Positions 11,930 through 28,385 of a stretch of DNA of 28,411 nucleotides are shown one piece after another. The DNA is taken from positions 1-28,411 of IMG/VR virus record IMGVR_UViG_3300047272_000070. One strand, written 5' to 3'. The translations under genes and the position numbers were made by a program. Every line of letters starts with the position of its first letter. Positions within the stretch are counted from its first letter, which is position 1. The notes under the pieces were generated by a model. That model had not been told where the DNA came from. It ran no database searches and saw only the letters and a program-made list of their open reading frames with translations. The stretch is from a virus (lineage: Duplodnaviria; Caudoviricetes).

Positions 11930-14900
11930 ATGGACGAGAAATATTTACAAGACCTGTACGGAGTAGTATTAAAAAATGATCCTTCTTACCGGCAGAAAGT
12001 TTCTTTTGATTTATTCAGAAGCAAGATGCAGGATCAGGACTATGCAGGTAGATTAACTGATTGGGTTTCTAGTGTAGACAGTACATTTAAGTCTAAGTCT
12101 TCACAGCCTGTAGTCCCTTTTAAAAAAAAAGAAGATACGGTATCGTCTTCGGTACTTGGTTCTTCGGCATCTGGGAGATTTGACCCCAGAACTGGTAAGT
12201 TAAATCAAGAGCAGCCACAGTTTCAAAGACCTCAGGACAGAGACTTCAGTGGCCTTGCTGTTGATGTAGATCCACAACTAATAACTAAGAAGCCTAGGGA
12301 AGATAGACCTGTGGTTTCTCAGGATGTTACTGCTGTAGCTAGGCTACCTAAGACTCAAACTCTTGAGGTAGAAGAGAATAAGAAGTACATAAAAGAGACT
12401 GAGAGACTAAAGAATGAGGCTCAGAATCTAGAGAAACTTAAGGAAGCTGAACAGCAAGATCTATTAAAACAGCAAAATGTTCTTGCGATTCAGGACCCAG
12501 AGTTTGGATCTCTTATTACACAGATTAATAAAGACCTCATAAACAATGAGGAGAAAGATGTAACTGACTTTTTAAATAAGCAGTTCTCAAAGTATGGTTT
12601 CCACTTTGAGTCTACTGGTGTTGGCGATGCTGTAATAGCACGAACAATTGATGGTAAAGAATTTATTGAGATTGACCTAGACCCATTCCTTGAGTCAACA
12701 GAGATTGAGGAATCAGAGAAGCTTAGAAAGTTTATCTCTAAAAATGCTCAGCCTGTATACAACTACAAAGACGAGGACTACATTACCAAGGCAGTAAGGG
12801 CTCAAAGCCTACGTGACATTGGTATGAAGAACGAAGATGGTACTGAGTCTACTGTGAAATTCACTTCATTTGAACAGGATGGTAAGCACTTTGTAATACC
12901 AACTTTGTTCCCTAAGAATACACTTAACTATACCTCAGATAAAAAAGACTGGCTTGAGTTCCCATTTGAGCAAGCCCTAAAGGAGGCAAGGTCTCGTGGT
13001 GAAGTGTTTGAGTTTGACAACGAGGCAGATGCTAAGAGATTCGCTGAAGGAGACTGGAAGAATGTAAATGCATTTGACTTAGAAGGACAAAAGCTATACA
13101 AGGAGAAAGGTCTTGACTACTATACAGAGAAGAAGAAGTTTGAGAACTACACTGCATTGCAGGATGAGGTTGAGTTGCTAGATAGGATTCTTGATAGAGA
13201 CTATATTGCTCCAGAAGAAAAGTTAAAGTACCCTCAATATTTCGCTAATGATGGTAGACCACTTTACAGCGAGAAGGAGATTGAGTCAAGGCTAGACAAA
13301 ACTGTAAAGCAGAAGGACCAATTATTGGAGCAGGTATTCGATGTTGAATTCCTAGGGATAAACGATGGGCCAGTACAGAAGACACGTGAAGAGTTTGACA
13401 TAGTACTTAGCAAGAAGCAGAAAGAGATTGAGGGTCAGGCTATCAAGCAGAACAATCAGGTGAATACTGAGCTTCAGCAGGTTAACCTTATGTCCATGAA
13501 CTTGTATGGTGTACCTATTGAGAAACTTTACACGGTAGTACCAAAGACCACTGAGGATGAGAAGACAATAAACGATCTAGTCCTTAAGACCAAGGAGTTA
13601 ATTGCTCTGAGTAAGGATGCTGCTAACAAGTTTCAGTTAGCCAATACCTACTACGATGCAAAGTGGAACAAGGCTGCCACTGAGGAGTACGAGGAGAACC
13701 TATCAGGATTCAACACAGCATTAGCGGATGCATGGCAAAATGGAAAGGCTGCTGAGCAAATATTGTTAGCTACTCTTGGCATTAAAGATGTAGATTCTAC
13801 TGCCGACAGAAAAGATATTGCAATGAAAATTGCAGAGGCATCTAGTAATCTTAGTGGTAAGCAGTCACGTGTACTTACAAGGCTAAACCTATCTAGAGAT
13901 GGTGAGTTCTTTAAGACATTCATGTCTGATCCATTGGAGGCAATGTCCACATTTGCTGCTTCTTCATTTACTCAGATACTTCCATACGGCAGTTATCTTA
14001 TCCCATCAATTGTAGGGTCAAGTGTTGCGGCAGGGGCTGCCATAGGCGGATCAGCAGCAGGTGCACCGGGTGCACTAGCAGGTGCTACCACTGGTTTAGG
14101 CTATGGTGTTAGGTCAGGTATGGCCGCATCATTCTTTGCTCTTGAATATACTAATGCCATACTTGATGTAATGAAGGAGAAGGGATATAATATCACCGAC
14201 CCACTTCAGGTTGAGAAAGGATTGATGGACGAATCAGTATGGTCTGAGGGTAGTGAGCGTGGTGTTAAGAGAGGTATACCTATTGCCCTTGTAGATTACT
14301 TGGGGGCTGGCCTAACAGGTAAAGTATTTAAGGTAAGTAAGATTGCTCCAATAGCAACAAGAGTTGGTGCACTTACTGCTGAACGTCTTGTAGTCGATCC
14401 AGCATTTGAGATGGGAGGAGAACTTGCTGCTCAGGTGTCAGCAGGTCAAGAGATTAACATGAAGGAGATTGCATACGAAGGTATGGGTGGTGTTGGTACC
14501 AATACATCTATGATGGGTATGAACATGTACATAGAATCTCGTAACCAGACTAGTGCACAGTTGGCTCTGGAGCTTACAGATATCAACGCTATGGCATCTC
14601 AAAGAGTTAGCGATGAGAGGATATCTAACTGGGCTAACAACATGCAGAAGCTTGGTAAGATTGATGCTGATGTTAACCAGAGAATCCAGCAGAATGTTGG
14701 TCTAAGAAGAGAGGCCAGAGATCTATTGTCAGTTGGTGCGGTAAGCAGACTTACTGGTAATACATCAAAGTCTGAGGCCAGAGTGATGGAGCTTCTTGCT
14801 GCTAGACAGGAGTTGACTTCTACTCAAAACAGAAGAGAGGTTAACTCAGATAAGATTAAGGCTATCAATCAGGAGCTAGCTGAATTGTCCGAGACCAAGA

Positions 14901-17900
14901 AGGTAAAGCCTAAAGAGGAGCAAGTAAACCTTGACTTAATCTTGGGTACAAAAAGAGAGGGTGTGTCTGTGTACCGCATTGGTGGTAAGACCATGACAAA
15001 GGAGCAGTTCCTGAAGGAGATTGAGAAGATGAGTACTCGTAGTTTGCTTAGGTCTAAGATCGTAGTAGACAACGATGATGAAACACAAATAGAAATACTA
15101 AACAAACAACTAGATGCCATTCAAAAGCAAACAGCAGGTCAAGTACCTGTACAGCCAGGAACCAGAGATCGCCAAGAGATGGCGCAAGGAGAACCCCAAG
15201 CAGAACCTCAAGGCATTGCCCAAGAAGGTCAAGTCCAAGAAGTAACTCAGCCTATTTTAAATAAGGACATAGAGGTAAAAGATAGTGAAGGGCAGAAAGG
15301 ATTAGTTCCTATTACTGAATTAGAAGAATTTATAGGTGAAGATAGATTAGGTGAAGCACAGATGCCTACATCTAGAGCTACTATAGATAGGTTAAAAGAA
15401 GATATCTCTAAGAATGGTTTTAAGGAACCTATTGTGCTTGTTTATGACAGGTCTAGTGGAGAAGGTGAGGCCACAATTATAGAAGGCAATCATAGAATTA
15501 TAGCTGCCAAAGAATTAGGACTTAAAGAGATACCTGTAATATTCGAGAAGGGAACAATTAGAAGCGATGAAAGCAGAGCTAAGGATAATATGTTTCCAAT
15601 TAAAAGAAAAACTGTTGGTAGTATAGATGATAGATTTGGTGTTAGAGGTTCTGATTTAGGATTAACAGTTAGACAACCTGTAGATTCAGACTTTGTAAAA
15701 GAAGGTCAAGTAGAAGTATCAACTGTATCTCCTGCTGTATCTCCAGCTGTATCTCCTACTCAGCAGTTAGACTTAGAAGGAGAGGTATCCTTACTTGAGC
15801 AGTTACTTACAGGTAATCAGCAACCAGAGCCAAGAGCAAGACTTTCAGCTGGAGTAGAAGCTCAAGATACAAGAACCAATGAAGCTGATGTTGTGTCAGA
15901 GATAAATCAAATGGCTGTTCAATCTCCAGAAGAAGCTGCTTTTGAAGGGGCTAAACCAACTGGTCAGGTTGAGGCTGGCCAAGTGGTTTCTGATAATCCA
16001 ACACCAGATAATATTAAAAAGCCATTCTTAAAAAGAATACTTAATAAGTTAGGATTTACAAAAGAAAGTCAGCTATACAGAAGGATAGAAGAATTTTCTA
16101 ACATTCCAATGATGATAGGAATATCTGATTCACTTGGAAGTGGAACTTATAAGGATGCTGCTGGTAATGATATGGAAATTGATGGAGGTTTGATGTTCAA
16201 CTTCTTTAGAAATCCTGGACTTGCATGGGCTAATGTTGATAAGAAGTTAGCTCAAAATATTGTTAACCAAGCAAAGCAAGTATACACTGCAAACAAAGAA
16301 CTGTTTGATAGATTATGGAAGGAAGGTGCACTACCTGATGGTCATATCCCATATTCAATTGTAAGGATGGGTGATGATGCCTTGTATTCAAATGAAGCAA
16401 TATTCAGATACCTATCTCCTTGGATTAAAACACTTCCTTTAGAAAATAGAAAGGCTGCTCTTGAAGTTTATAAGCAAGATTTAATGAAAGCCGCAAAGGG
16501 GCAATCTTCTAGTTCTTGGATATTTGATCTTCAGGATAATATTGACAATGGAAATATAACTGACTTCAAAGGAATTATAGATTATCTTGAGAGCCTTAAG
16601 AATTCAGATGTACCTGTAGCAACAAAAGATGCTATACAGTCATTAGAGAATAAGCTAAACAAAATAAAAGGAGAGGAAAAGTTCTCTGACTCTATTGAAG
16701 CTATTGATGAGATACTTTCAAAAAAGGCCCCTATAAGAATACTTAACTTTATAGAGGAGAAAAATATCACGACAGTAGATGGTCTTTTTGATGCAATTGT
16801 AGATGATGCTATAAGCCGAGCTAAGGGTGAACCTAGTATGCTTAGCTTACCAGTTAGAGCCATAATATCCACTAAGCTATTATCTTTAACTCCTCTTAAA
16901 AAAGATGCTCCAACAACTGAGTTTAATAAAGCTCTGCTTGGAAGAGAAAAGAATCCTCTATGGAACGATGCTAAAAAGCTAACTCTTCCATTCATTAAGG
17001 ATCAAATAAGTGAACCTGCTATGCTAAAGGCTAGGCAGGGAGACATCGTTGCTGTGATGGGTATAGATGTACGTGAAGGTTCATCAGGTGTAGAGAAGGC
17101 TCAGCATAATAATTATGGGTATGGACCTAAAGGTATGCTTATATCTTACATCAGTAATCCAACAAGAGCATTTGATGTATTTGCAGAGCTACAAGCAAAA
17201 GCACCTCGCCTACTTAAGAAAAACAAAAGTGGTATCTATCCTACAGCTGACTCTATTGTTAGACAAGCTGGTGGTACAGCATTTATAGATGTTGCTTTTA
17301 GAGGTGCTAAGATTAAACCACAAGGGCTGACTGACATTGATATTATTGTTGGAAAACTTAGAACTGCATTCCCCGATGTATCTGTATTTGATACTAAGGA
17401 AGAGTTTGATAATTTCTTACAACAAGAAGGAATAAGATCAAGAGCAGATGCCAATGGAAATGTAATCTATGGTATCACAAAAGATGGAAAGATATTTATA
17501 AACCCTGATAACTTATCATTAAGAACTCCTATACACGAGTTCGGACATATATGGGTTGATTACTTAAAATCAAAAGCATCTGGTAATAAAGGGACTGCAT
17601 TACTAAATCGTGGTCTTCAGCTTGTTGATGGTACACCAGAATACAAAGAGGCTTTAGCTAAGTATGGTCAGAGAGACATTGCCCTAGAAGAAGCATTGGT
17701 TGAGTTGATTGCAACTAAAGGGGAGACCATAGTTAATGCATCAAAGAAGAGTGAGTTTAAAAACTGGCTTAATGCATTCTTTAAGTACATCAAGGAAAAG
17801 TTTGTTACAACAAAAGAGCTATTCAAAGATAAAGACTTTGTATCTAGAATAGAGAAAATGACCTTAGATGAATTTATTAATTCATCCCTTGCTGATTTAT

Positions 17901-20900
17901 TTGGAATGGCTCAGGTCAATAGAAAGTTCAAGGCATCTGAAGCAATGGCAGCATCTAGAGCTAGGCTTGGAGAAAGTGATATTAATAACATTGTCCAGGT
18001 TGGACTTGCTAATGGAATTTCTGAGACAGCTATTCGTGAACTACTTAATAAAATAGGCTTTACTCAAGAAGCCATTGATGCTGCATTAGGTAAGGAACCA
18101 AAGGCTCCAGAGATTGAGGTACGTGAAGAAAGAGCACAGCCAGCCAGAGGTAAGTCTGAGATAGACAAGATTATATCTAAGGCAATCAAGGATGCAGGTG
18201 CTGATTTGAATGCTAAGCGAAAGGCTATTGCTGATGCAGTAAAAGGTATGTCGAAGAATGGTGGTAAGATTAATGCCAAGACTGTTGAAGCAATCATCAA
18301 GAGGGCGGAGATGGTAAACCTAAACAATCAGACTGCTGTAGATAAATTCATCTCCTATGCTGGTAAGATATTTAAAGATGCTGAGTACGGTAAGAAACTT
18401 AACGATGCAAAGGCTAAGAGAAAAACGATAAGAAGAGGAGCCAAGAGTAAAGAGGTTGCTTCAAACCTTCGTGACCTTGCCAAGCTGTTCTCAGTTATTG
18501 ATCCATCGATGGTGGAGGATATCGATAAGTACAATCAGATTGCTGATAAAATATCTGAAGCAGTAGTGGGTTCAAGTTTAAGAGGCAAGGATGGCACATT
18601 CGCTAAGATAATAAAAACAGAAGGTCTTACTGATTACATTAACGAGAATATAGAGAAGCAGCAAAAGCAAATTCTAAAAGACAAGATTGCCAGAATGAGT
18701 GAGGTTGTTGGCAAGAACTTGACTGAGGAAGAATACTTTGAAGTACTGGAATCCAGAAACAAGGATGCTAAAGTTAGCAAGGAACTGAAGTCTGCTAAGG
18801 TAAAAGAGAATGCAATAAAAGAAGTTAACATGTACAAGAGTATCGTAAGAGAGATTCTTGACAAAGATGTTAACCCTATTTCTGGAGAAGATGTAACTGT
18901 GAGTAATGCCAAGAAAAAGGTAGTTGAGAAATTCATGAGCATGGACTTGAACTTGCTTGATGTCAATGAGCTTCTTGATATGTTTGACTCACTACAAAAC
19001 TTTATTGAGAATGGGTCCACTGCAAAGATGGAATCTATTTACAGTTCTTATGTAGGCAAAGTCAATGCTACCAAAGCAAAGGGAATTGTTTCTCAAAAGA
19101 TTAAGAAGTACTTCAATGAAACTGTAGGCGAGTTCTTACTTGAGCAGTTCACATCTTTGGACCTTCTATTCGAAAGAATGTTCAAGGGATTTGAGAGAGG
19201 TGGAAAAATGATGTCTCTTGCTGGTGTGTCTGCCATAAAGAAAGGGAAGTCAACAGCTAAGGCGTTGAGTGATGCCATCGTTGATCAATACTTCAATAAG
19301 TTCTACAAGCTAACTCCAAACGGTCAGGCATTCAATACCATGTACAATACAGTTGAGCGTGGTATGCTTGCGTACATGATGCGAAATGTTATTGGTACTG
19401 AAGAGCAGGTGCAGGCTGAGTTTGATAGAAGGAAGCAACTAATTGTTGATTCAATTAAAGTCCTTGAGAAGGGTGACAAGAACCATAGACAGTTGTCTGT
19501 TGAGTATGCTAAGGCTTTCAACAAGATACTTCAAGACTCTAACACCTCAGAAGAAGTTGTTAATAAGGCTGCCCAAATCAACGTAGATGCTGTTAAGTTC
19601 TGGCAAACACAATGGGGTGATAAGTATGATCAACTCGCTGACTTGTCTGAAAACATATACAACCAGACTCTAGGTAAGGATGTGAACTATACTCCAGACC
19701 GTGTGTCTAGTATAGAAAAAGAGTCTGTATCATCTGAGACAGGTGATGAGATGGACTCACACTTGATGACGTTCCATGCCAACAACAAGACTCCTTACCA
19801 GAGAAAGACAGGTGTATTGATGACTCCTGTTATGGATGATACTCTTCCTAAGAAGTCTTACATAAACTTGTCTTTTGATTCTAACAATGCCAACTCAATG
19901 TATGATGCATTGGTCGACTTGAATACTGCTGGCCCTATACGACAGGTGTCTGCGTTCTTTAACTCTCCTGAGTTTGATCAGATTGTTCCTGACCTTACTG
20001 ACAGAAAGATTCTAAGATCAAGAGTAAACTTGTTTATTCGAAATATTCGAAACAAGAATCCTTATGAGAACGATAGTTTTGCTAAGGCGATTAGAGCACT
20101 CCAGAATGTTGCGGCATTGGGTACCGGTCAAATACTTGCAGGCCCTACTCAGATACCAAAGCAAACTATCCCAGTTATTATAAATACCATCATCAATGCT
20201 GGTGGCATAGACTTGGCTGCTCCTTTCAATGAGGATAAGAACAACTTCATGAACAGGTCTGGTTACTCAATAGCCTACCGTAGTGCGGCAAGCCAGAACC
20301 AAATCGCTACGCTTAATAAGATTTCTACTAGAGCGGAGACTGGTCCTGTAGGTAAAGTTGGTGATGCAATCTTTGCATTGAACGACCTTCAGTTGAAGTA
20401 CTTCTTACAGAAGCCAGATGCCTACGTTGCACGTGCATCTTGGATGTCATACTATGAGAAGTCTTTAAAGAAGCAAGGTATTGACCCTAAGACTATAGAC
20501 TACGCTACTCATGAAGTGAATGATACGGCTGCTGATTACGCTCAAAGAATGGTGGACAGACAGCAGAACATATCTGACATGGACTTGGCTGGTAAGTTTA
20601 TATCATCTAAGAACCCTGCTAACCAACTTGTAAACAAGTTGTTGTTGCCGTTCGCAAGCTTTAGAATCAACCAGTCTGCAAGACTTGGATCCGACTGGGC
20701 TACGCTAACTTCTAAGGTATCAACCAAGGAAGACAAGGCGATTGCTGCGAGATCTTTGGGTGGATTCTTTAGTGAACTAGTAACATTCAGAGCAGTATCT
20801 ATTGGTGTTACCACATTGCTTAGCTCGATGGCCTTGTCTATTGCAGGTAAGAGAGATGACGAAGAGGACCGTGAAAGAAAGAGGTCTACAGTTATGAAAG

Positions 20901-21580
20901 GTGCAACCACCTCTACGATTGTGGATACATTCTCCTTACTTCCAGCATTAGATCCCATCTTCCAATCTGGTGTAGCATTCGGACTAGATGTTGTTCAGGA
21001 CTTTTTTAAGGTATCAGAGAAGAACAGAATTCCTTTCTACGATGCAAAAGAAAAAGACTTTATTGAGCAAGCAGGTACTCTTGGAATCAGTATTGGTAAG
21101 GCTAAGCAGTTCTTTGAGTTGGTATCTCTTGCCTATACTGGACAATACACAGACGAGTACAGCGGTAAGACTAAGTACATTAAGTCCAGAGATGCAAATT
21201 CACTGAAGATGTTTGTGGTTCCTTTCTTATTGTCTCACCTTGGCATATTGCCTGGAGCACCTGAGATTGGTACAATGACTAGAATAATAATGAAGGACGT
21301 TAAGAAGGATTCTTCTACTACTCCTGGAGGGTACAAGGCTGACGAGATGACCATGGAGGATATGAAAAAGTATTTCCCCGAGGAGTATGAGAACCAATAC
21401 GGAGAAGGTAGTCCATACCGTGAGGCTAAGGAACTTGAAAAAGAAGCCAACGAAGAAAAGAAAAAGGAGGAAGAGGAATTGAAAGAGGCAATGTATGGTA
21501 AGCCTGCATCCAAGGGACGAGGAAAGGGTAGAGGACAATCAACTAGAGGGTCATCTAGAAGAAGAGAGGGAAGGCGTTAA
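11930..21580 (+). CDS. Giant polyvalent (probably virion-ejected) protein with ParB/Srx-like and zincin metallopeptidase domains
   Basis: 3216 aa. Gly/Ala hydrophobic segment near 13990-14140. ParB-like 'LKEDISKNGFKEPIVL...IIEGNHRIIAAKELGLKEIPV' near 15390-15540. 'TPIHEFGHIW...EEALVELI' metallopeptidase near 17525-17710. Long helical C-terminal region and a basic RG-rich tail. Confidence 0.8.
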   Translation: MDEKYLQDLYGVVLKNDPSYRQKVSFDLFRSKMQDQDYAGRLTDWVSSVDSTFKSKSSQPVVPFKKKEDTVSSSVLGSSASGRFDPRTGKLNQEQPQFQRPQDRDFSGLAVDVDPQLITKKPREDRPVVSQDVTAVARLPKTQTLEVEENKKYIKETERLKNEAQNLEKLKEAEQQDLLKQQNVLAIQDPEFGSLITQINKDLINNEEKDVTDFLNKQFSKYGFHFESTGVGDAVIARTIDGKEFIEIDLDPFLESTEIEESEKLRKFISKNAQPVYNYKDEDYITKAVRAQSLRDIGMKNEDGTESTVKFTSFEQDGKHFVIPTLFPKNTLNYTSDKKDWLEFPFEQALKEARSRGEVFEFDNEADAKRFAEGDWKNVNAFDLEGQKLYKEKGLDYYTEKKKFENYTALQDEVELLDRILDRDYIAPEEKLKYPQYFANDGRPLYSEKEIESRLDKTVKQKDQLLEQVFDVEFLGINDGPVQKTREEFDIVLSKKQKEIEGQAIKQNNQVNTELQQVNLMSMNLYGVPIEKLYTVVPKTTEDEKTINDLVLKTKELIALSKDAANKFQLANTYYDAKWNKAATEEYEENLSGFNTALADAWQNGKAAEQILLATLGIKDVDSTADRKDIAMKIAEASSNLSGKQSRVLTRLNLSRDGEFFKTFMSDPLEAMSTFAASSFTQILPYGSYLIPSIVGSSVAAGAAIGGSAAGAPGALAGATTGLGYGVRSGMAASFFALEYTNAILDVMKEKGYNITDPLQVEKGLMDESVWSEGSERGVKRGIPIALVDYLGAGLTGKVFKVSKIAPIATRVGALTAERLVVDPAFEMGGELAAQVSAGQEINMKEIAYEGMGGVGTNTSMMGMNMYIESRNQTSAQLALELTDINAMASQRVSDERISNWANNMQKLGKIDADVNQRIQQNVGLRREARDLLSVGAVSRLTGNTSKSEARVMELLAARQELTSTQNRREVNSDKIKAINQELAELSETKKVKPKEEQVNLDLILGTKREGVSVYRIGGKTMTKEQFLKEIEKMSTRSLLRSKIVVDNDDETQIEILNKQLDAIQKQTAGQVPVQPGTRDRQEMAQGEPQAEPQGIAQEGQVQEVTQPILNKDIEVKDSEGQKGLVPITELEEFIGEDRLGEAQMPTSRATIDRLKEDISKNGFKEPIVLVYDRSSGEGEATIIEGNHRIIAAKELGLKEIPVIFEKGTIRSDESRAKDNMFPIKRKTVGSIDDRFGVRGSDLGLTVRQPVDSDFVKEGQVEVSTVSPAVSPAVSPTQQLDLEGEVSLLEQLLTGNQQPEPRARLSAGVEAQDTRTNEADVVSEINQMAVQSPEEAAFEGAKPTGQVEAGQVVSDNPTPDNIKKPFLKRILNKLGFTKESQLYRRIEEFSNIPMMIGISDSLGSGTYKDAAGNDMEIDGGLMFNFFRNPGLAWANVDKKLAQNIVNQAKQVYTANKELFDRLWKEGALPDGHIPYSIVRMGDDALYSNEAIFRYLSPWIKTLPLENRKAALEVYKQDLMKAAKGQSSSSWIFDLQDNIDNGNITDFKGIIDYLESLKNSDVPVATKDAIQSLENKLNKIKGEEKFSDSIEAIDEILSKKAPIRILNFIEEKNITTVDGLFDAIVDDAISRAKGEPSMLSLPVRAIISTKLLSLTPLKKDAPTTEFNKALLGREKNPLWNDAKKLTLPFIKDQISEPAMLKARQGDIVAVMGIDVREGSSGVEKAQHNNYGYGPKGMLISYISNPTRAFDVFAELQAKAPRLLKKNKSGIYPTADSIVRQAGGTAFIDVAFRGAKIKPQGLTDIDIIVGKLRTAFPDVSVFDTKEEFDNFLQQEGIRSRADANGNVIYGITKDGKIFINPDNLSLRTPIHEFGHIWVDYLKSKASGNKGTALLNRGLQLVDGTPEYKEALAKYGQRDIALEEALVELIATKGETIVNASKKSEFKNWLNAFFKYIKEKFVTTKELFKDKDFVSRIEKMTLDEFINSSLADLFGMAQVNRKFKASEAMAASRARLGESDINNIVQVGLANGISETAIRELLNKIGFTQEAIDAALGKEPKAPEIEVREERAQPARGKSEIDKIISKAIKDAGADLNAKRKAIADAVKGMSKNGGKINAKTVEAIIKRAEMVNLNNQTAVDKFISYAGKIFKDAEYGKKLNDAKAKRKTIRRGAKSKEVASNLRDLAKLFSVIDPSMVEDIDKYNQIADKISEAVVGSSLRGKDGTFAKIIKTEGLTDYINENIEKQQKQILKDKIARMSEVVGKNLTEEEYFEVLESRNKDAKVSKELKSAKVKENAIKEVNMYKSIVREILDKDVNPISGEDVTVSNAKKKVVEKFMSMDLNLLDVNELLDMFDSLQNFIENGSTAKMESIYSSYVGKVNATKAKGIVSQKIKKYFNETVGEFLLEQFTSLDLLFERMFKGFERGGKMMSLAGVSAIKKGKSTAKALSDAIVDQYFNKFYKLTPNGQAFNTMYNTVERGMLAYMMRNVIGTEEQVQAEFDRRKQLIVDSIKVLEKGDKNHRQLSVEYAKAFNKILQDSNTSEEVVNKAAQINVDAVKFWQTQWGDKYDQLADLSENIYNQTLGKDVNYTPDRVSSIEKESVSSETGDEMDSHLMTFHANNKTPYQRKTGVLMTPVMDDTLPKKSYINLSFDSNNANSMYDALVDLNTAGPIRQVSAFFNSPEFDQIVPDLTDRKILRSRVNLFIRNIRNKNPYENDSFAKAIRALQNVAALGTGQILAGPTQIPKQTIPVIINTIINAGGIDLAAPFNEDKNNFMNRSGYSIAYRSAASQNQIATLNKISTRAETGPVGKVGDAIFALNDLQLKYFLQKPDAYVARASWMSYYEKSLKKQGIDPKTIDYATHEVNDTAADYAQRMVDRQQNISDMDLAGKFISSKNPANQLVNKLLLPFASFRINQSARLGSDWATLTSKVSTKEDKAIAARSLGGFFSELVTFRAVSIGVTTLLSSMALSIAGKRDDEEDRERKRSTVMKGATTSTIVDTFSLLPALDPIFQSGVAFGLDVVQDFFKVSEKNRIPFYDAKEKDFIEQAGTLGISIGKAKQFFELVSLAYTGQYTDEYSGKTKYIKSRDANSLKMFVVPFLLSHLGILPGAPEIGTMTRIIMKDVKKDSSTTPGGYKADEMTMEDMKKYFPEEYENQYGEGSPYREAKELEKEANEEKKKEEEELKEAMYGKPASKGRGKGRGQSTRGSSRRREGRR
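12118..12183 (+). promoter_or_regulatory. Candidate -1 frameshift/transcriptional slippage site (T4A9 plus hairpin) opening a short -1-frame tail
   Basis: In-frame A AAA AAA heptamer, then hairpin GTATCG-TCTT-CGGTAC at 12140-12155. The -1 frame reads RRYGIVFGTWFFGIWEI-stop (TGA 12181-12183). Confidence 0.55.
15114..15245 (+). CDS. Nested 43-aa basic protein in the +1 frame of the giant gene (MPFKS-type small phage protein)
   Basis: ATG..TAA encoding MPFKSKQQVKYLYSQEPEIAKRWRKENPKQNLKALPKKVKSKK. 36 of 43 codons end in G/C and none in T. A-rich leader. Confidence 0.75.
   Translation: MPFKSKQQVKYLYSQEPEIAKRWRKENPKQNLKALPKKVKSKK
15222..15711 (+). repeat. 13-bp direct repeats flanking the ParB-like domain
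   Basis: AAGAAGGTCAAGT at 15222-15234 and 15699-15711, 477 nt (159 codons) apart. Confidence 0.7.
15723..15758 (+). repeat. 3 x 12-bp tandem repeat encoding a (T/A)VSP linker
   Basis: CTGTATCTCCTG / CTGTATCTCCAG / CTGTATCTCCTA. Confidence 0.9.
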
Positions 21581-22463: not shown

Positions 22464-22529
22464 TTTATACCCTAAACGTACCCTATTTATACCCTAAACA
22501 TACCCTATTTATACCCTAAACATACCCTA
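22464..22529. repeat. 3 x 22-bp tandem repeat containing six TACCCTA motifs at 11-bp spacing
   Basis: Unit TTTATACCCTAAAC(G/A)TACCCTA. TACCCTA starts at 22468, 22479, 22490, 22501, 22512 and 22523. Confidence 0.95.
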
Positions 22530-22727
22530 TTTGTATGGCCTAAAGTTTTTCTTTGCTGTCTGTAATGCTTCTGACTCAGTGTCAGCAACACCTGTGTCGT
22601 ATGTAAAGCCATCGCTGAACCAGTATAACCAATCACCACCTATTGATTGGAACACACCTATTGATCCTACAGGAACCTCTCTCATGTAGAATAACTTCTT
22701 TGCTTGGTCTCCTAGATAGATTGTCAT
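22527..22727 (-). CDS. Hypothetical protein (66 aa)
   Basis: The start at 22727 (MTIYLGDQ...) gives ATGA coupling with the upstream gene's stop. Confidence 0.6.
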   Translation of the reverse strand: MTIYLGDQAKKLFYMREVPVGSIGVFQSIGGDWLYWFSDGFTYDTGVADTESEALQTAKKNFRPYK

Positions 22728-23375: not shown

Positions 23376-23602
23376 ATAAATTTTGAAATTAATATTCCTA
23401 AAATATTTGAGATTAATATTCCTAAAATAGCTGATGATAGTCCAACCACCAGACCATTTGTAAAACATTTAGCACCATAACGAAGAAGATTTGATTTCTC
23501 CATTTCCTTAGCATCCATTAAAATTCCGTACCAAGTCCACTTATCCTTTGTTTCATCCCAAAGTTTTTGATATAAATAATCTACTGCTGTCTGCTTTTTC
23601 AT
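23372..23602 (-). CDS. Small protein, TAV.W / EMEK paralog family, with hydrophobic C-terminus
   Basis: MKKQTAVDYL...DAKEMEKSN...GLVVGLSSAILGILISNILGILISKFI. Confidence 0.7.
   Translation of the reverse strand: MKKQTAVDYLYQKLWDETKDKWTWYGILMDAKEMEKSNLLRYGAKCFTNGLVVGLSSAILGILISNILGILISKFI
23382..23429. repeat. 24-bp tandem duplication (ILGILIS x2)
   Basis: TTTGAAATTAATATTCCTAAAATA / TTTGAGATTAATATTCCTAAAATA, one mismatch. Confidence 0.9.
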
Positions 23603-23751
23603 AGTTTATTAATTAGATTGTTTATGTTCTCATCTGATAGGAAGTTATCCTTGTCATTACTCCAATAATCTAGGTACCTATCCCTGTGTACAGCGTACCA
23701 CTTCTGTGTGTATTCATTCCAATGAAATACGTAGTTCCAAATCTTTTCCAT
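23599..23751 (-). CDS. Small aromatic-rich hypothetical protein (50 aa; not in the ORF track)
   Basis: MEKIWNYVFHWNEYTQKWYAVHRDRYLDYWSNDKDNFLSDENINNLINKL. A-rich leader and ATGA coupling to the next gene. Confidence 0.7.
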   Translation of the reverse strand: MEKIWNYVFHWNEYTQKWYAVHRDRYLDYWSNDKDNFLSDENINNLINKL

Positions 23752-23769
23752 GTTGTTTATTTTAATGTG

Positions 23770-23878
23770 TAGTCAGGACAGGATTCGAACCTGTATTTAT
23801 ACCACCATACAACTCTCTTTATGGTTGGGCTGTACACACCCTTCGTTGTATGTGCGTTACCAATTCCGCCACCTGACT
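23770..23878 (-). ncRNA. tRNA-like RNA A (Leu-like scaffold, expanded anticodon domain)
   Basis: Acceptor AGTCAGG/CCTGACT, D arm GCG-GAATTGGTAA-CGC, T arm ACAGG-TTCGAAT-CCTGT. An 8-bp CATACAAC/GTTGTATG stem closes 31 nt in place of a 7-nt loop. Confidence 0.75.
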
Positions 23879-23888
23879 AGGTTATTTG

Positions 23889-23970
23889 TGGCTAGTGCAG
23901 GTACTGCCCCTGCTGCTTGGTCTTTTGCATTTTCAGCGTCACCCATGATTTACTTTTAATCTAACTAGCC
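23889..23970 (-). ncRNA. tRNA-like RNA B (degenerate; non-canonical T loop)
   Basis: Acceptor GGCTAGT/ACTAGCC, D stem GATT/AATC, T arm GCAGG-GGCAGTA-CCTGC. Irregular anticodon arm containing CTGAAAA. Confidence 0.6.
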
Positions 23971-23973
23971 TGT

Positions 23974-24084
23974 ACGGGTCTCTCCCCGTTAGTCACCACT
24001 CGCATTTTGCGCATCAATTAGAAGTCGCTTCCAAAAAGCATCTTCGCTTATCTATTATAGCTGCGACCGAGGTTCTCACTACTC
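23974..24084 (-). ncRNA. Candidate structured RNA between the tRNA-like elements
   Basis: Stems GTCGC/GCGAC, CGCA-AAA-TGCG and ACGGG-GAGAGA-CCCGT; no convincing ORF. Confidence 0.3.
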
Positions 24085-24085
24085 G

Positions 24086-24232
24086 TAGTCAGGACAGGAT
24101 TCGAACCTGTATGGTAGGCTTATCTAGAAAGCCGTTTGAAGTACCTATTTCAAAGGTATTACGGAGCTTTACACCGACTGATTACGGACACCAACCTTTG
24201 ATTTTAGCGTTTACCAATTCCGCCACCTGACT
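24086..24232 (-). ncRNA. tRNA-like RNA C (same scaffold as A, different and larger insert)
   Basis: Acceptor and T arms identical to RNA A; D loop differs by one A. An 8-bp TCAAAGGT/ACCTTTGA stem closes 36 nt. Variable-arm hairpin GGCTT-TCTAGAT-AAGCC. Confidence 0.75.
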
Positions 24233-24273
24233 AAGTTTGCTACTGTTGGTAGGCACTAGCGACCCGAGTCTAT

Positions 24274-24625: not shown

Positions 24626-26008
24626 TTAAATATTTATTTTTTTGAAATGATTAACTGTGTAGTCCTTCTTCTTTATCACTGTCTTGTAGATGTCATGCTC
24701 AATGCCTCCCTTACTGAAGACCCAGTACACATGGTTGAATGATCGCTCCTTGGTTGTCATCCTGTCCCTGCTCTGCCAGTAACTGGTAGCACTGAAGTCA
24801 ATGTTGTAGTACACCAACGCTACTGCATTGCGTAGGCTGATGCCCTCCCTACCACTTACAATCTGCAATGCTATGCTCTTGTCGGTCTTGTCGAACACAT
24901 CAAGGTCAGTAGTCAACTCATCACCATATACCTGCTTGAGTGCAGACAACTCCTCCTTGAACTTGTAAAAGATACCTATCTTTTGGGTGCAGAAGTTGTC
25001 ATAAATGTACTGAGCTTTTGTGGTATCTAGAACCATGCTGTTGCCACTCTCAAACTTAATCGTGCCACTGCATAGTTGGTGTACCTTCATCATCAACTTT
25101 ACTGGTGTGTCCGCCAGTATCACCTCAGTCTTACCCTCAATGACCAAGTCCCTCTCAAGTTTCTTGATTAACTTTATTGTAGACTCCTTCATCTCCACCT
25201 CAAGGACCTCCTCAGTAACTGACGATACGAACCCTGCTTCCTTCTGGGAGAAGCTTATCATGTATGGCTTCATAGCCTCGATGATGCTGTCCAAGCCATG
25301 GCTGTAGTCATTGATGAATAGGCCATTGATGTTTTTCTGCTTGACCTTTACGTACACATCAGCGAACCTGTAGAAGTTAGCGAACTGCCGGAAAGGATTG
25401 TTTGGTATGCCGTACACCTGATGGTACATCTGAGAGTAGCTCTCAGGAGTTGGTGTGCCAGACAGAAGTATCACCTTAGACTTGTGCTTAGAGATAGCGT
25501 GTCGAATCATTACAGCCCGATTGCTGGGCTTTGGGAATGCACCTATGCTATGAGACTCATCGATTATAATTAGGTCAAATTTGAGGCTATCTACCACGTG
25601 GTGGAGGCTCTCGTAGTTGACCACCTTCATAGCGTATCTAGGCTTTAGGGTATCGTAGTCCTTCTCGATACTACCTATGGCCTTCTTCTTGGTAACGAAC
25701 AGCACTGACTCGGCACCGCATTCATTTGCAATCCCTAGACTGGTCAGTGTCTTGCCTGTCCGTACCTCCATGGCTAGGAATACAAAGCCATGCTTACTCA
25801 GGATCTCTGACCCTTGGTTAATTATGTCTTGTTGGTATGGTCTAAACTCCATGTTCTTTGATCCGTAGTGAGTGAAGCTGTTCTTTATTCTATCCAGTGC
25901 ATCATCATCTGAGTACTTACTCTTTGACAACACATCGTAAAGCATACCGCAGTACTCCAACATCTGCCTGTCAGAGTACGCTGGTATCCTCTCAACTATC
26001 TTGCTCAT
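24626..26008 (-). CDS. Superfamily 2 (SNF2-like, DExH) helicase
   Basis: Q motif 'FRPYQ', Walker A 'EVRTGKT', 'IIIDESH', motif III 'LSGTP', 'GREGISL', motif VI 'QSRDR'. Alternative start at 25852. Confidence 0.88.
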   Translation of the reverse strand: MSKIVERIPAYSDRQMLEYCGMLYDVLSKSKYSDDDALDRIKNSFTHYGSKNMEFRPYQQDIINQGSEILSKHGFVFLAMEVRTGKTLTSLGIANECGAESVLFVTKKKAIGSIEKDYDTLKPRYAMKVVNYESLHHVVDSLKFDLIIIDESHSIGAFPKPSNRAVMIRHAISKHKSKVILLSGTPTPESYSQMYHQVYGIPNNPFRQFANFYRFADVYVKVKQKNINGLFINDYSHGLDSIIEAMKPYMISFSQKEAGFVSSVTEEVLEVEMKESTIKLIKKLERDLVIEGKTEVILADTPVKLMMKVHQLCSGTIKFESGNSMVLDTTKAQYIYDNFCTQKIGIFYKFKEELSALKQVYGDELTTDLDVFDKTDKSIALQIVSGREGISLRNAVALVYYNIDFSATSYWQSRDRMTTKERSFNHVYWVFSKGGIEHDIYKTVIKKKDYTVNHFKKINI

Positions 26009-28385
26009 GAATAATAATCCATCTGCCCATCATGTCTCGTCCCTCCTCAGGAGCAACGCCATACTTGAATAGACCATAAGATATCAACCACTTGTAGAAC
26101 TTGGTCCTGCTGATTGTCATCTTAGACTTTGGTCCATAGTCAGGGTACTCATTCACGAAGTCATTGTACAAATCATTCTTGTACAGTCTTATCTCTGGCT
26201 CAAGCGTGTTGTTCTTAGGCTGACCTTCAACCAATCCACACCACTCAATGAAGTCATGAGATGTCTCGGCAGATAGCTGTCTGATTTTTAGGTTGACAAA
26301 CTTACTTCTAACCAGACCTGTGTTCAGGTAAGACTTAAGACATCCAATCATGTAGTTGTCAAACTCGCACCAGTCATCGTCATTCCAGTCCCCGAACATC
26401 AACTTTCCGAACTCATCCAATGGAGTAAAGGCTTTAGTGTAGTACTGGTGTAACTCCAGCTCCCACTTACGTCTAGCGAATGAGTTGCCTGACCCCTTGA
26501 TTGCATAGTTGGTAGTGATGGCAATCTTTGGGGACTTGCTGAATGGTATCTTGATAGCATCCTTGTTCTTCTTCTCTAGCGTTAGGCCCTCAGTTACCAC
26601 ACTGAATAGTCTCTCGAAGTCGAAGTACTTCTTCACGTCATCGAACACTAGTATCTGGGTGTCAGCAGAGACAAGTTGGTAGGCGAAACTTCGCTCAAAT
26701 GTGAAGGACTTTCCATCGATAGTCACAACCTTCTTCATCTTTGCTAGTGCGTTCATGAACAGGCCCTTGCCTGTGCCACCCTCAGGGTTGTCGCTTATCA
26801 CCTCATCGTTCAGGATGACAGCAGGGCAGAAGCTCAGGTTTTTGTAGCCATGTAGCAGGAATCCAATGGTACTCTCCATAGCCTCGACCCTGCCATCGTC
26901 ATCTCCGCAGATGTTACGAATGAACTTCTTATAGTTACATGCATCAGTCACATCACACATGGTGAAGTTACGGTCAATCACATGGTCCTTCCACACGTAT
27001 CCACCTAGGTCTAGGTAATCGATTGGCTTCACCCCATTCTTTGTCACCTGCACAGCACAGTTCCTGTAGTACAGGTACGATGCATCCTTGGTATCCTCAA
27101 TGAATAAGATGTCAATCGTAGATATCATTGACAGGAACTCCTCCTTGAAGAATCGAGTGTTGTCAGCGAAGTAATTGTACACCGCAATGTCATCCAGCTC
27201 CAGCAGGTGAGTAAGTATGAAGTCCTTTATCTCCTTCTCTGATGTATGGTCGATTAGGTTGTTGGTTACCTTGACGAAGATGTAGTTCTTCCCACCCTCA
27301 GGGCAGTACTTGTAGAAGCCTTTGTCCTCAAGGAACTGCTTGAATAGAATGTGTACGATGCGGATGACTCCCTTCTCGTTCTTGTTCCAAAATGTTTGCT
27401 TGGAGTTCTCCTCCTCCACCTTGTTCAAGACCGCTTCGATAGTATCCGTATCCAGTTGAGAGTCCTGTAGCTGAATACGTATTTCTTTTTTTGATACACC
27501 CCTCCTGAGCTTGGCTTTGATGGAGTTGATTCGCTCCTCGTCCTCGTAATACTTGGTTCCAAAGTTGGCAGTGTGCCGGTACGCTGAGTCAATAGTTTGA
27601 GCAATCTCCTTCACTGTAAAGTCCTCAGATGCATACTGGTTCAGCACATAGGATGCAAGGCTTTTGTTGATACCGAAGTCATTGAACGCCATGGCTAGGA
27701 TGTACACGTTTTGGTTCCGCTGTCCCTCCATCATTGGATACTTCTTGGTCCACCACTTGACAAGGATTTCAACCACCTTGTTCTCATCAGTGATAGGTAT
27801 GGTGGGGCTGTCCTTAATCTTGCTTATCTCTGTGTACTCTGGCTCCTCAATCTTGTCCCAGACAGATGAGTTCTCGTTCACATAAATCAATGCATCGTAT
27901 GACTCGTAGCATACACGTGATACGTTCTTGCTTGTCTTATCAAAGTACTGACTGTTGAAGTACTTCTCTAGACTGTTGAAGTAGTTGATGTGATTCTCAG
28001 GGTCAGCTGGAATCTTTACCAGAACCTTAAGCCCATTACCTGATGGGGATACGAATACAGAGTACACAAACTTATTCTTTGATAGGTTCTCCTTGTCTTC
28101 TAACAAGTCCTTGTTCTTGGCATAGCCATCAAAGTCTAGGCATATCAGACCACTGTGTTCTTTTAAGTAGGCATCCCCTCTCTTTGGAAAAATCCCACTG
28201 AAACATATCGCTGGTAACTTTTTCTTTAATTCATTACGCTCAGCCTTTGTCTTCTCTGCCCTAATCTTTTTTACCAGTTCTTTGGAAGAACCTTCCTTAA
28301 TTCTGTTGAGAATAACACCAACATTCCTGTAGAATGGGGTGCTAGTCTCCTTGATATCCTGAAATATCGTCACTTGATGTACCAT
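25992..28385 (-). CDS. Primase-helicase: BT4734/VirE-N-like AEP primase domain, PriCT, and SF3/D5-like helicase
   Basis: 'KKKLPAICFSG', 'CLDFD', 'FVSPSGNGLK', 'SRVCYESYD', PriCT 'GQRNQNVYILA', Walker A 'GGTGKGL', Walker B 'LVFDD', motif C 'ITTN'. Confidence 0.88.
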   Translation of the reverse strand: MVHQVTIFQDIKETSTPFYRNVGVILNRIKEGSSKELVKKIRAEKTKAERNELKKKLPAICFSGIFPKRGDAYLKEHSGLICLDFDGYAKNKDLLEDKENLSKNKFVYSVFVSPSGNGLKVLVKIPADPENHINYFNSLEKYFNSQYFDKTSKNVSRVCYESYDALIYVNENSSVWDKIEEPEYTEISKIKDSPTIPITDENKVVEILVKWWTKKYPMMEGQRNQNVYILAMAFNDFGINKSLASYVLNQYASEDFTVKEIAQTIDSAYRHTANFGTKYYEDEERINSIKAKLRRGVSKKEIRIQLQDSQLDTDTIEAVLNKVEEENSKQTFWNKNEKGVIRIVHILFKQFLEDKGFYKYCPEGGKNYIFVKVTNNLIDHTSEKEIKDFILTHLLELDDIAVYNYFADNTRFFKEEFLSMISTIDILFIEDTKDASYLYYRNCAVQVTKNGVKPIDYLDLGGYVWKDHVIDRNFTMCDVTDACNYKKFIRNICGDDDGRVEAMESTIGFLLHGYKNLSFCPAVILNDEVISDNPEGGTGKGLFMNALAKMKKVVTIDGKSFTFERSFAYQLVSADTQILVFDDVKKYFDFERLFSVVTEGLTLEKKNKDAIKIPFSKSPKIAITTNYAIKGSGNSFARRKWELELHQYYTKAFTPLDEFGKLMFGDWNDDDWCEFDNYMIGCLKSYLNTGLVRSKFVNLKIRQLSAETSHDFIEWCGLVEGQPKNNTLEPEIRLYKNDLYNDFVNEYPDYGPKSKMTISRTKFYKWLISYGLFKYGVAPEEGRDMMGRWIIIHEQDS
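27447..27492 (-). promoter_or_regulatory. Candidate -1 ribosomal frameshift signal within the primase-helicase
   Basis: In-frame A AAA AAA, 6-nt spacer GAAATA, 9-bp stem CGTATTCAG/CTGGATACG (one G-U) with a 15-nt loop. Confidence 0.5.

Follow-up and report, generated by a model that had tools for sequence, protein, structure and literature searches.

A Leu-type tRNA frame around unlike centres in a crAss-like phage and other phage contigs, a probable carrier of folded RNA modules

The window analyzed here is the whole 28.4-kb contig of a crAss-like phage. Two of its elements, E1 and E2, carry the same tRNA-type arms around unrelated centres. The sequence-only reading had proposed non-decoding tRNA scaffolds with swappable structured cargo, and this proposal is supported: an anticodon arm is absent, mosaic loci are found and inserts are structured. 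The explanation that we favor, at a probability of about 60%, is a non-decoding Leu-type tRNA chassis, probably processed and protected by the host, which carries exchangeable folded RNA modules that would bind host proteins. A natural carrier is likely because the same frame is present in hundreds of contigs around more than 200 inserts that have been swapped between genomes.

Three elements in a leftward phage operon

The contig encodes virion proteins, and a Pfam search of the window detects the muzzle domain of crassviruses, with PF25729 passing its cut-off and PF25731 falling short of it. E1, E2 and a third member, E3, all lie within a leftward (minus-strand) operon. The upstream part of the operon has a primase/helicase gene with a BT4734-like N-terminal domain (25992-28385, minus strand; PF08800, E 2e-18; phrog_28855, phrog_18375). 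An SNF2-type helicase gene, co-oriented with the elements (24626-26008, minus strand; phrog_62, E 3e-57; PF00176, PF04851), and one 115-aa ORF precede the elements, and a run of small ORFs follows. A 50-aa ORF (23599-23751, minus strand) starts 18 nt after E1 and matched no PHROG or Pfam family. Phage protein families, the Bacteroidota labels of 5 of the 14 GTDB matches described below and the genes of a Chitinophagia contig (214 kb, with Mu-like gp36 and portal genes adjoining a family member) point to a Bacteroidota host, and the phage would be of an aquatic or freshwater type. Elsewhere in the window a 22-nt unit is found in three tandem intergenic copies (22464-22535), possibly an origin or a protein-binding array. 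A 3,216-aa protein encoded on the plus strand (11930-21580), probably a large virion cargo protein, displays a weak ParB-like stretch at residues ~1150-1218.

E1 (23770-23878, minus strand, 109 nt) and E2 (24086-24232, minus strand, 147 nt) score as Rfam tRNA with 46.3 and 37.5 bits (gathering cut-off 29), in agreement with the acceptor, Leu-like D and canonical T arms first read from the letters. The 28-nt blocks (23769-23796 and 24085-24112) and 23-nt blocks (23857-23879 and 24211-24233) said to be shared are indeed exact matches. In E1 the 5′ arm (23878-23854) is followed by a 59-nt centre (23853-23795) and by the T arm, 3′ acceptor strand and A73 (23794-23770); the corresponding parts of E2 are at 24232-24207, 24206-24111 (a centre of 96 nt) and 24110-24086, and its fold has a z of -3.2. 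These centres, measured from the end of the D stem to the start of the T stem, had been given as 57 and 94 nt, which is the same figure less the 2 bases that they share. Both elements show a 7-bp acceptor, a 5-bp T stem and the U54-U55-C56-A58 loop as in tRNA-Leu, and, as had been noted, discriminator A73 and no encoded CCA.

An 8-bp stem had been placed at the anticodon-stem position of each element. Both stems are present, closing 31 and 36 nt, but only that of E1 (23852-23845 with 23813-23806) occupies this position, beginning at position 27, whereas that of E2 (24201-24194 with 24157-24150) begins 5 nt further on, with a second hairpin domain of 39 nt behind it. Nor is a stem at the anticodon position a rule of the family: 64 of 205 centre types have one of at least 6 bp there, compared with 42 for shuffled sequences (maximum 51). 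The E1 stem encloses an inner hairpin, and a predicted pseudoknot of 3-4 bp, which rests on near-invariant pairs, involves the 11-nt tail.

E3 (23889-23970, minus strand, 82 nt) lies between E1 and E2 and had been missed. It is a divergent member, with another but fully paired acceptor, a D loop without GG and GGCAGUA as T loop; its internal frame is conserved and its insert short and variable. The E3 subfamily consists of 22 distinct variants, mostly on the family acceptor and otherwise on compensated acceptors, with D and T loops of their own; the inserts vary from 10 to 39 nt and the internal frame is conserved.

Directly 3′ of E2 is a spacer of 115 nt (23971-24085, minus strand), found with 99% identity in locus L141. 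A relative with 77% identity (L094, 348-440) is again directly 3′ of a family member. The spacer did not match Rfam at E<=1; it has a predicted multi-hairpin fold and is probably a separate folded RNA module. Theta ribozymes are described from gut phages in the available text of PMC10879173, and such a ribozyme was considered for the spacer and rejected, as no HDV-like first stem was seen on inspection.

A frame under selection as RNA, without an anticodon arm

A metagenome search with the constant blocks, as suggested by the sequence-only reading, brought out the family in hundreds of phage contigs, with many unlike centres. The exact 25-base 3′ arm is estimated to be present in ~1,100 IMG/VR stretches and the 21-base 5′ arm in ~540, and at least 129 and at least 122 of these loci, respectively, were examined. 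Pooling of the loci gave 300 distinct members of 66-191 nt; membership requires an acceptor close to AGTCAGG, and the constancy of the acceptor is therefore partly built in. Parsing of 282 members (18 were dropped) gave 229 centre types of 7 to 140 nt, 199 of them singletons, and the two largest centre clusters are inflated by targeted scans. The carriers are contigs from a few kb to ~300 kb. Five or six different members can be found side by side within single genomes, and in L132 a tandem run of six members leads straight into nine ordinary tRNAs; such tRNAs are absent from the array of the window. A blastn search of the region against 50,697 annotated phage records gave one match, annotated only as protein, and no cultured carrier. 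ARAGORN puts scattered tRNA labels on 55 family-like sequences, and such labels on members would distort analyses of phage codon supply.

The frame is under selection as RNA. With one representative per centre type, A15-U48 is found in 177/195, and G15 goes with C48 in 4/5 against 4/190 (Fisher p 6e-6, kinship not corrected). G13.A22 is present in 141/208 and G21 in 143/208. Of the members, 101 were chosen by the 5′ arm only, and all of these have U55, C56 and A58; changes in their T stems are mostly paired. The whole acceptor has been replaced with its pairing kept in L136/L137 and in E3-type members; in L136 the acceptor that goes with the E1 centre differs in five pairs, each changed on both sides. 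The scaffold proposal had been made to depend on covariation and transcription, of which the former is found and the latter is hinted at by the RNA-library contigs described below.

The Leu-type D arm could suggest leucine tRNAs decayed to pseudogenes, or remnants of a host tRNA in an attP, and some copies are broken. Among 119 copies selected by the 5′ arm, 26 failed a strict 3′-arm parse, some with a broken acceptor end or missing 3′ half and others being harmless variants or contig ends. This origin is, however, largely refuted by the tertiary and stem covariation and by the distribution of the exact 3′ arm, which in 185,579 GTDB genomes is found in only 14 stretches. All 14 are on MAG contigs of mixed taxa and all parse as family members, and thus a host tRNA or attP is not the source of the arm. 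L307 and L357 have the 5′ arm but no 3′ half, and AT-rich gene sequence comes after the arm; these are apparent remnants of recombination inside the arm.

The ends of the members resemble those of ordinary tRNAs at the same loci. U-1 is found in 248/300 members (49/69 ordinary tRNAs), C74 in 89/93 (69/69) and an encoded CCA in 8/300 (5/69), and the strand is the same in 132/132 pairs, from 35 of 268 loci. The motif TAnnTTTG, which we take to be the Bacteroidota -7 promoter element, occurs within 20 nt upstream of 20/295 members where ~2.2 are expected, and 13 of the 20 are at 11-12 nt; this enrichment may stem from a few related phages. In the window the motif is at background level (31 against 26.8 shuffled), none lies just upstream of E2 on its strand, and the window's elements are without it; a sigma-70 scan of the window gave 9 sites against 15 in shuffles. 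Some of the window's relatives (L160-L167, L181) have TAnnTTTG just upstream of a conserved leader, which in the window precedes E2 (24234-24272, minus strand). An ORF begins within 45 nt downstream of 96/273 members compared with 17/270 in the control, and a role in mRNA processing fits this proximity as well.

E1- and E2-type centres and other members are present in RNA-library contigs X2, X3 and X13 (study P2) and X7 (study P6), and in some RNA-library contigs a member is joined with a second one or with an ordinary tRNA. X3 and X13 also contain primase and helicase sequence of the relatives, and the contigs carry neither ends nor levels; these contigs thus indicate presence only, and DNA carry-over is possible. 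X15 and X16 cover the neighboring ORF or primase sequence and not the elements, and X1 is probably DNA. None of the 23 runs listed, all of assembled contigs, had half of the query words.

A canonical anticodon arm (5-bp stem and 7-nt Y32-U33-NNN-R37 loop) is found in 12/300 members, against 9.1 in shuffled sequences (maximum 18), and in 67/70 of the ordinary tRNAs of the same loci. The normal variable-arm hairpin is likewise absent, its place being taken by 11 unpaired nt in E1 and by the 39-nt domain in E2. Judged from the sequence, the elements do not decode. A decoy for anticodon nucleases, one of the roles first suggested, was dropped, as there is no anticodon loop to imitate.

Ordinary tRNA genes with spliced introns would also look oversized, and putative tRNA introns have been reported from Lak megaphages (10.1101/356790, from the portion available). 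ARAGORN reports no gene in E1 or E2 by default, where pseudo or undetermined calls had been expected, but its intron option (-i) returns Ser(cga) with a 30-nt intron for E1 and Pro(agg) with a 53-nt intron for E2. These calls lack U33 or have the wrong identity, Ser or Pro not fitting a Leu-type D arm with A73, and relatives of E1 differ in the triplet that is taken for the anticodon. No cut in the anticodon loop restores a canonical arm in E1 or E2, and in the family one was found in 2/184 against 1.3 shuffled; a model with the intron at 37/38 gave 6/205 against 2.2 (maximum 7), and U33 is present in only 66/205 centre types. Group I introns are larger than 140 nt, the upper limit of the centres, and neither group I nor group II introns were matched by Rfam in the elements and relatives scanned. 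The possibility of spliced inserts, raised by the sequence-only reading against itself, is very improbable.

Inserts as modules and their exchange

The E1 insert is, from its sequence variants, a module in its own right. It is known in 22 distinct variants, of which 19 lie in a frame and 3 are free-standing, and compensatory pairs occur among them. In the free-standing copies the inner hairpin, linker and UGG tail recur, but an altogether different stem closes them. At the second pair of the inner hairpin, 15 variants have A-U and 7 have G-C, and the UGG tail is retained in 19/22. A second centre is found free-standing in L008. The E2 centre occurs with 95-99% identity in 5 other phage contigs. 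Of the 8 pairs of its stem, 8, 7, 7, 7 and 6 are kept in 5 relatives, and its outer stem changes without compensation. Constraint is shown for few centres, as 199 of the 229 types are singletons.

Across 205 of the 229 types (odd D arms and short centres were dropped), folding is modest, with a median z of -0.71, 13% below -2 and 21% above 0. GNRA-capped hairpins are found in 43/205 centres, compared with 21 shuffled (maximum 32). T-loop-like hairpins (13/205 against 7.6, maximum 14) and UNCG loops are not enriched. Scans of the elements and of modules of relatives revealed no Rfam family other than tRNA; the sequence-only reading had named a match to a known family as grounds for refuting it. 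One centre, which to us resembles a c-di-AMP riboswitch, was considered as such and set aside, the resemblance being without Rfam support. A larger non-tRNA RNA motif containing the free-standing E1 module is found in L361, L362, L364, L366 and L368 (~200-330) and is often directly followed by an E3-type or other family member.

These data bear on whether the centre does anything. The frame alone may work, with the centre as filler that needs only to fold; the frame could be a sink that draws off host enzymes attacking the elbow or the ends of tRNAs, or a mark for RNase P and 3′ processing that stabilizes downstream mRNA. This would account for a strongly constrained frame around 229 types of centre of such unequal length, for the weak average folding signal and for the 96/273 members close to a downstream ORF. 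Defense systems do cut tRNAs outside the anticodon, as Septu does in tRNA-Tyr's variable loop (PMC13096335, from the text accessible). However, the E1 module retains unpaired motifs and exists outside the frame, the 22 E3-type variants keep an internal frame along with a D and T loop pair of their own, and five or six different members coexist in single genomes. We judge filler centres unlikely, although they are the chief alternative to the preferred reading. The high diversity of inserts would also suit a carrier of guide or antisense RNAs, the other cargo first suggested, or decoys for anticodon nucleases. The E1 insert, however, evolves as structure, by compensatory pairing, and complements of the E1 and E2 centres within the window are limited to chance matches of 9-14 nt, nothing better than E ~1. 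With no common neighboring effector gene and no anticodon loop as bait, guides and decoys are both highly improbable. The carrier of folded modules remains the preferred reading.

Exchange can be followed at the window's own site, which is marked on the left by the SNF2-type helicase gene and, in close relatives, on the right by the 50-aa ORF. Close relatives have this site empty (L163-L169) or filled by a 70-nt element (L160, L161) or E2 (L162, L181), and L173, L177 and L178 have another centre with a degenerate T loop. L160 and L181 are alike in both flanks and unrelated in their centres, and the sequence of L181 is that of the window with all that separates the two 3′ arms taken out. L141 matches E2, spacer and E3 at ~99% and then shows a different centre just behind the shared 5′ arm; L141 and L210 are one contig, whose helicase is 64% identical to that of the window. 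The leader of ~34 nt (31-35 nt at 97-100% in 9 loci) is kept in relatives whether they have a tRNA-frame element or not, including the empty L163-L165 and L167. As the junctions fall within the arms, the mosaics suggest exchange by homologous recombination. A 28-nt hairpin is inserted in the D loop of L133, L141 and L142, with both E1 and E2 centres, and a conserved motif of ~55 nt, a stem enclosing an apparent H-type pseudoknot, is found just 3′ of a member in L177 and L178 and in L141 (740-805); it had no Rfam match in L178 or L141.

Patchiness may also be expected of selfish or near-neutral cassettes, similar to MITEs or SINEs, that are harmlessly removed by tRNA processing. The members end in TA...TA with a short inverted repeat, decayed copies occur, contigs of very different size are carriers, and among 80 related loci anchored by the helicase a member was found within the fetched flanks in 16. 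Against such cassettes, inspection of empty beside filled sites did not bear out a TA target duplication, and orientation is fixed, both with ordinary tRNAs (132/132) and with the helicase (16/16). Moreover, other sequence can take the place of the terminal repeat without loss of pairing, and no common gene neighbors the members: 162 of 248 distinct flanking ORFs, which were clustered and not annotated, are unique, and the largest cluster has 9. We consider mobile cassettes improbable, and the exchangeable modules of the preferred reading are discussed further below.

A carrier of RNA modules and its known counterparts

In the mechanism proposed, the elements would be transcribed as part of phage operons or of tRNA clusters, or else from a promoter at the 5′ end, as orientation and motifs suggest. 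RNase P would then cut before A1, followed by 3′ trimming and CCA addition, given the end signals held in common with neighboring tRNAs. The product would fold into an L-shaped core, as supported by covariation, and could be leucylated by the host LeuRS. It would not decode, as the anticodon arm is absent. Modules would be exchanged, gained and lost through the 23-28 bp of identical arms, for which the mosaics are evidence. Taken jointly, we consider these steps likely. The weakest step comes last: the insert may be the working part, an aptamer-like decoy against host defense or translation factors. That the insert works by binding host proteins we put at slightly short of an even chance.

Leucylation may be considered at about even odds. 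Available portions of PMC2377443 show that LeuRS needs A73 and the D/T core, and that in Aquifex deletion of the anticodon arm leaves 0.45 relative activity. The core determinants A73, U8-A14, A15-U48 and G18/G19 are present in the family, with the exception of E3, which is without G18G19. In the same source, changes to or deletion of the variable arm reduce LeuRS activity to 0.02-0.08, so that charging of members with altered centres is doubtful. Compared with class II tRNA-Leu (RF00005), the family has the 7-bp acceptor, U8/A14, A15-U48, G13.A22, G18G19, G21, T arm and A73 in common, but not the anticodon arm, a Leu anticodon or the standard variable arm; its first pair is A1-U72, whereas G is the first base of the ordinary Leu tRNAs at these loci.

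The architecture is not new, as judged by record annotation, since RNA1 and RNA2 of phage T5 (NC_005859, misc_RNA T5s03 and T5s06; 'tRNA-like stable RNA with unknown functions') have the same build: an insert occupies the anticodon arm of a tRNA frame. Some other members of the family lie inside phage tRNA clusters, which is a further likeness. RNA1 has a Leu-type D loop, a U before the T arm and a long anticodon-arm insert, as here; the T arm of RNA2 is one base from that of the family, and its insert has a T-loop hairpin as in member L077. T5 stable RNAs closed only by a terminal stem resemble the free-standing modules. However, the acceptor stems of RNA1 and RNA2 differ on inspection and blastn gave no T5 match, so that they are not members by sequence. 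T5 has two fixed coliphage genes, whereas the family combines a near-constant frame with at least 229 types of centre, shuffled and with several to a genome.

Engineered tRNA scaffolds (Ponchon and Dardel; PMC3753655, as far as its text is available) likewise keep the acceptor, D and T arms and replace the anticodon arm by a folded RNA; those of like design are processed and protected in E. coli, and they rely on the host for this. These are laboratory constructs, whereas the family is natural, its processing is deduced from end signals, and it replaces the variable arm as well. In the accessible part of 10.1101/356790, the 'enigmatic' tRNA introns of Lak megaphages are also oversized pseudo-tRNAs with conserved inserts in phages of Bacteroidota; they differ in belonging to tRNAs of assignable type with intron-less counterparts, whereas no removal gives a canonical tRNA here. 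The tRNA-like domain of tmRNA, YrlA and the allo-tRNA polycistrons covered by the available text of PMC5389517 are non-decoding or irregular tRNA mimics, some of them phage-borne. Unlike tmRNA and YrlA, neither of which was matched by Rfam on the elements (E<=1), the family has a full D stem and a 7/5 acceptor branch and mostly no room for a tag frame.

No published description of the tRNA-frame family was found in the literature searched, which is thin on subscription and older work, including the primary T5 papers. The available portions of a viral RNA screen (PMC10690425), the 224-motif paper (PMC5737381), a review of non-canonical tRNAs (PMC7609411) and 10.1101/356790, PMC5389517, PMC3753655, PMC10879173 and PMC13096335 do not mention it, and the arms had no match in 6 supplement files of PMC10690425. 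New here are the tests across the whole family, the swaps seen at a single site, the subfamily around E3 and the modules that stand free of a frame.

Should the carrier reading be true, the puzzle of T5 RNA1 and RNA2 becomes testable, with a constant frame, hundreds of inserts, clean swaps and frameless inserts at hand; the laboratory tRNA scaffold would have a natural counterpart, and candidate RNA effectors of phages would become available in large number. A broader view is that aquatic Bacteroidota phages maintain a natural tRNA-scaffold platform, a single standard Leu-type chassis, its arms serving as recombination handles for hundreds of captured structured RNA effectors, each freed with precise ends by the tRNA enzymes of the host and directed against a host protein. 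We regard this as tentative, with the odds rather against it; if true, it would be an RNA counterpart of the accessory anti-defense genes of phages.

Other RNA motifs were noted near members. Phage tmRNA genes are in the same RNA arrays in L059 (941-1327), L136 (359-707) and L008 (1-148). An Rfam freshwater-1 RNA (75.9 bits) is located in L397 (172-233), ~25 nt upstream of an E3-type member. A recurrent hairpin with the core GGAAAGAC is found in L028, L033, L058, L077 and L120, where it ends a few bases upstream of members.
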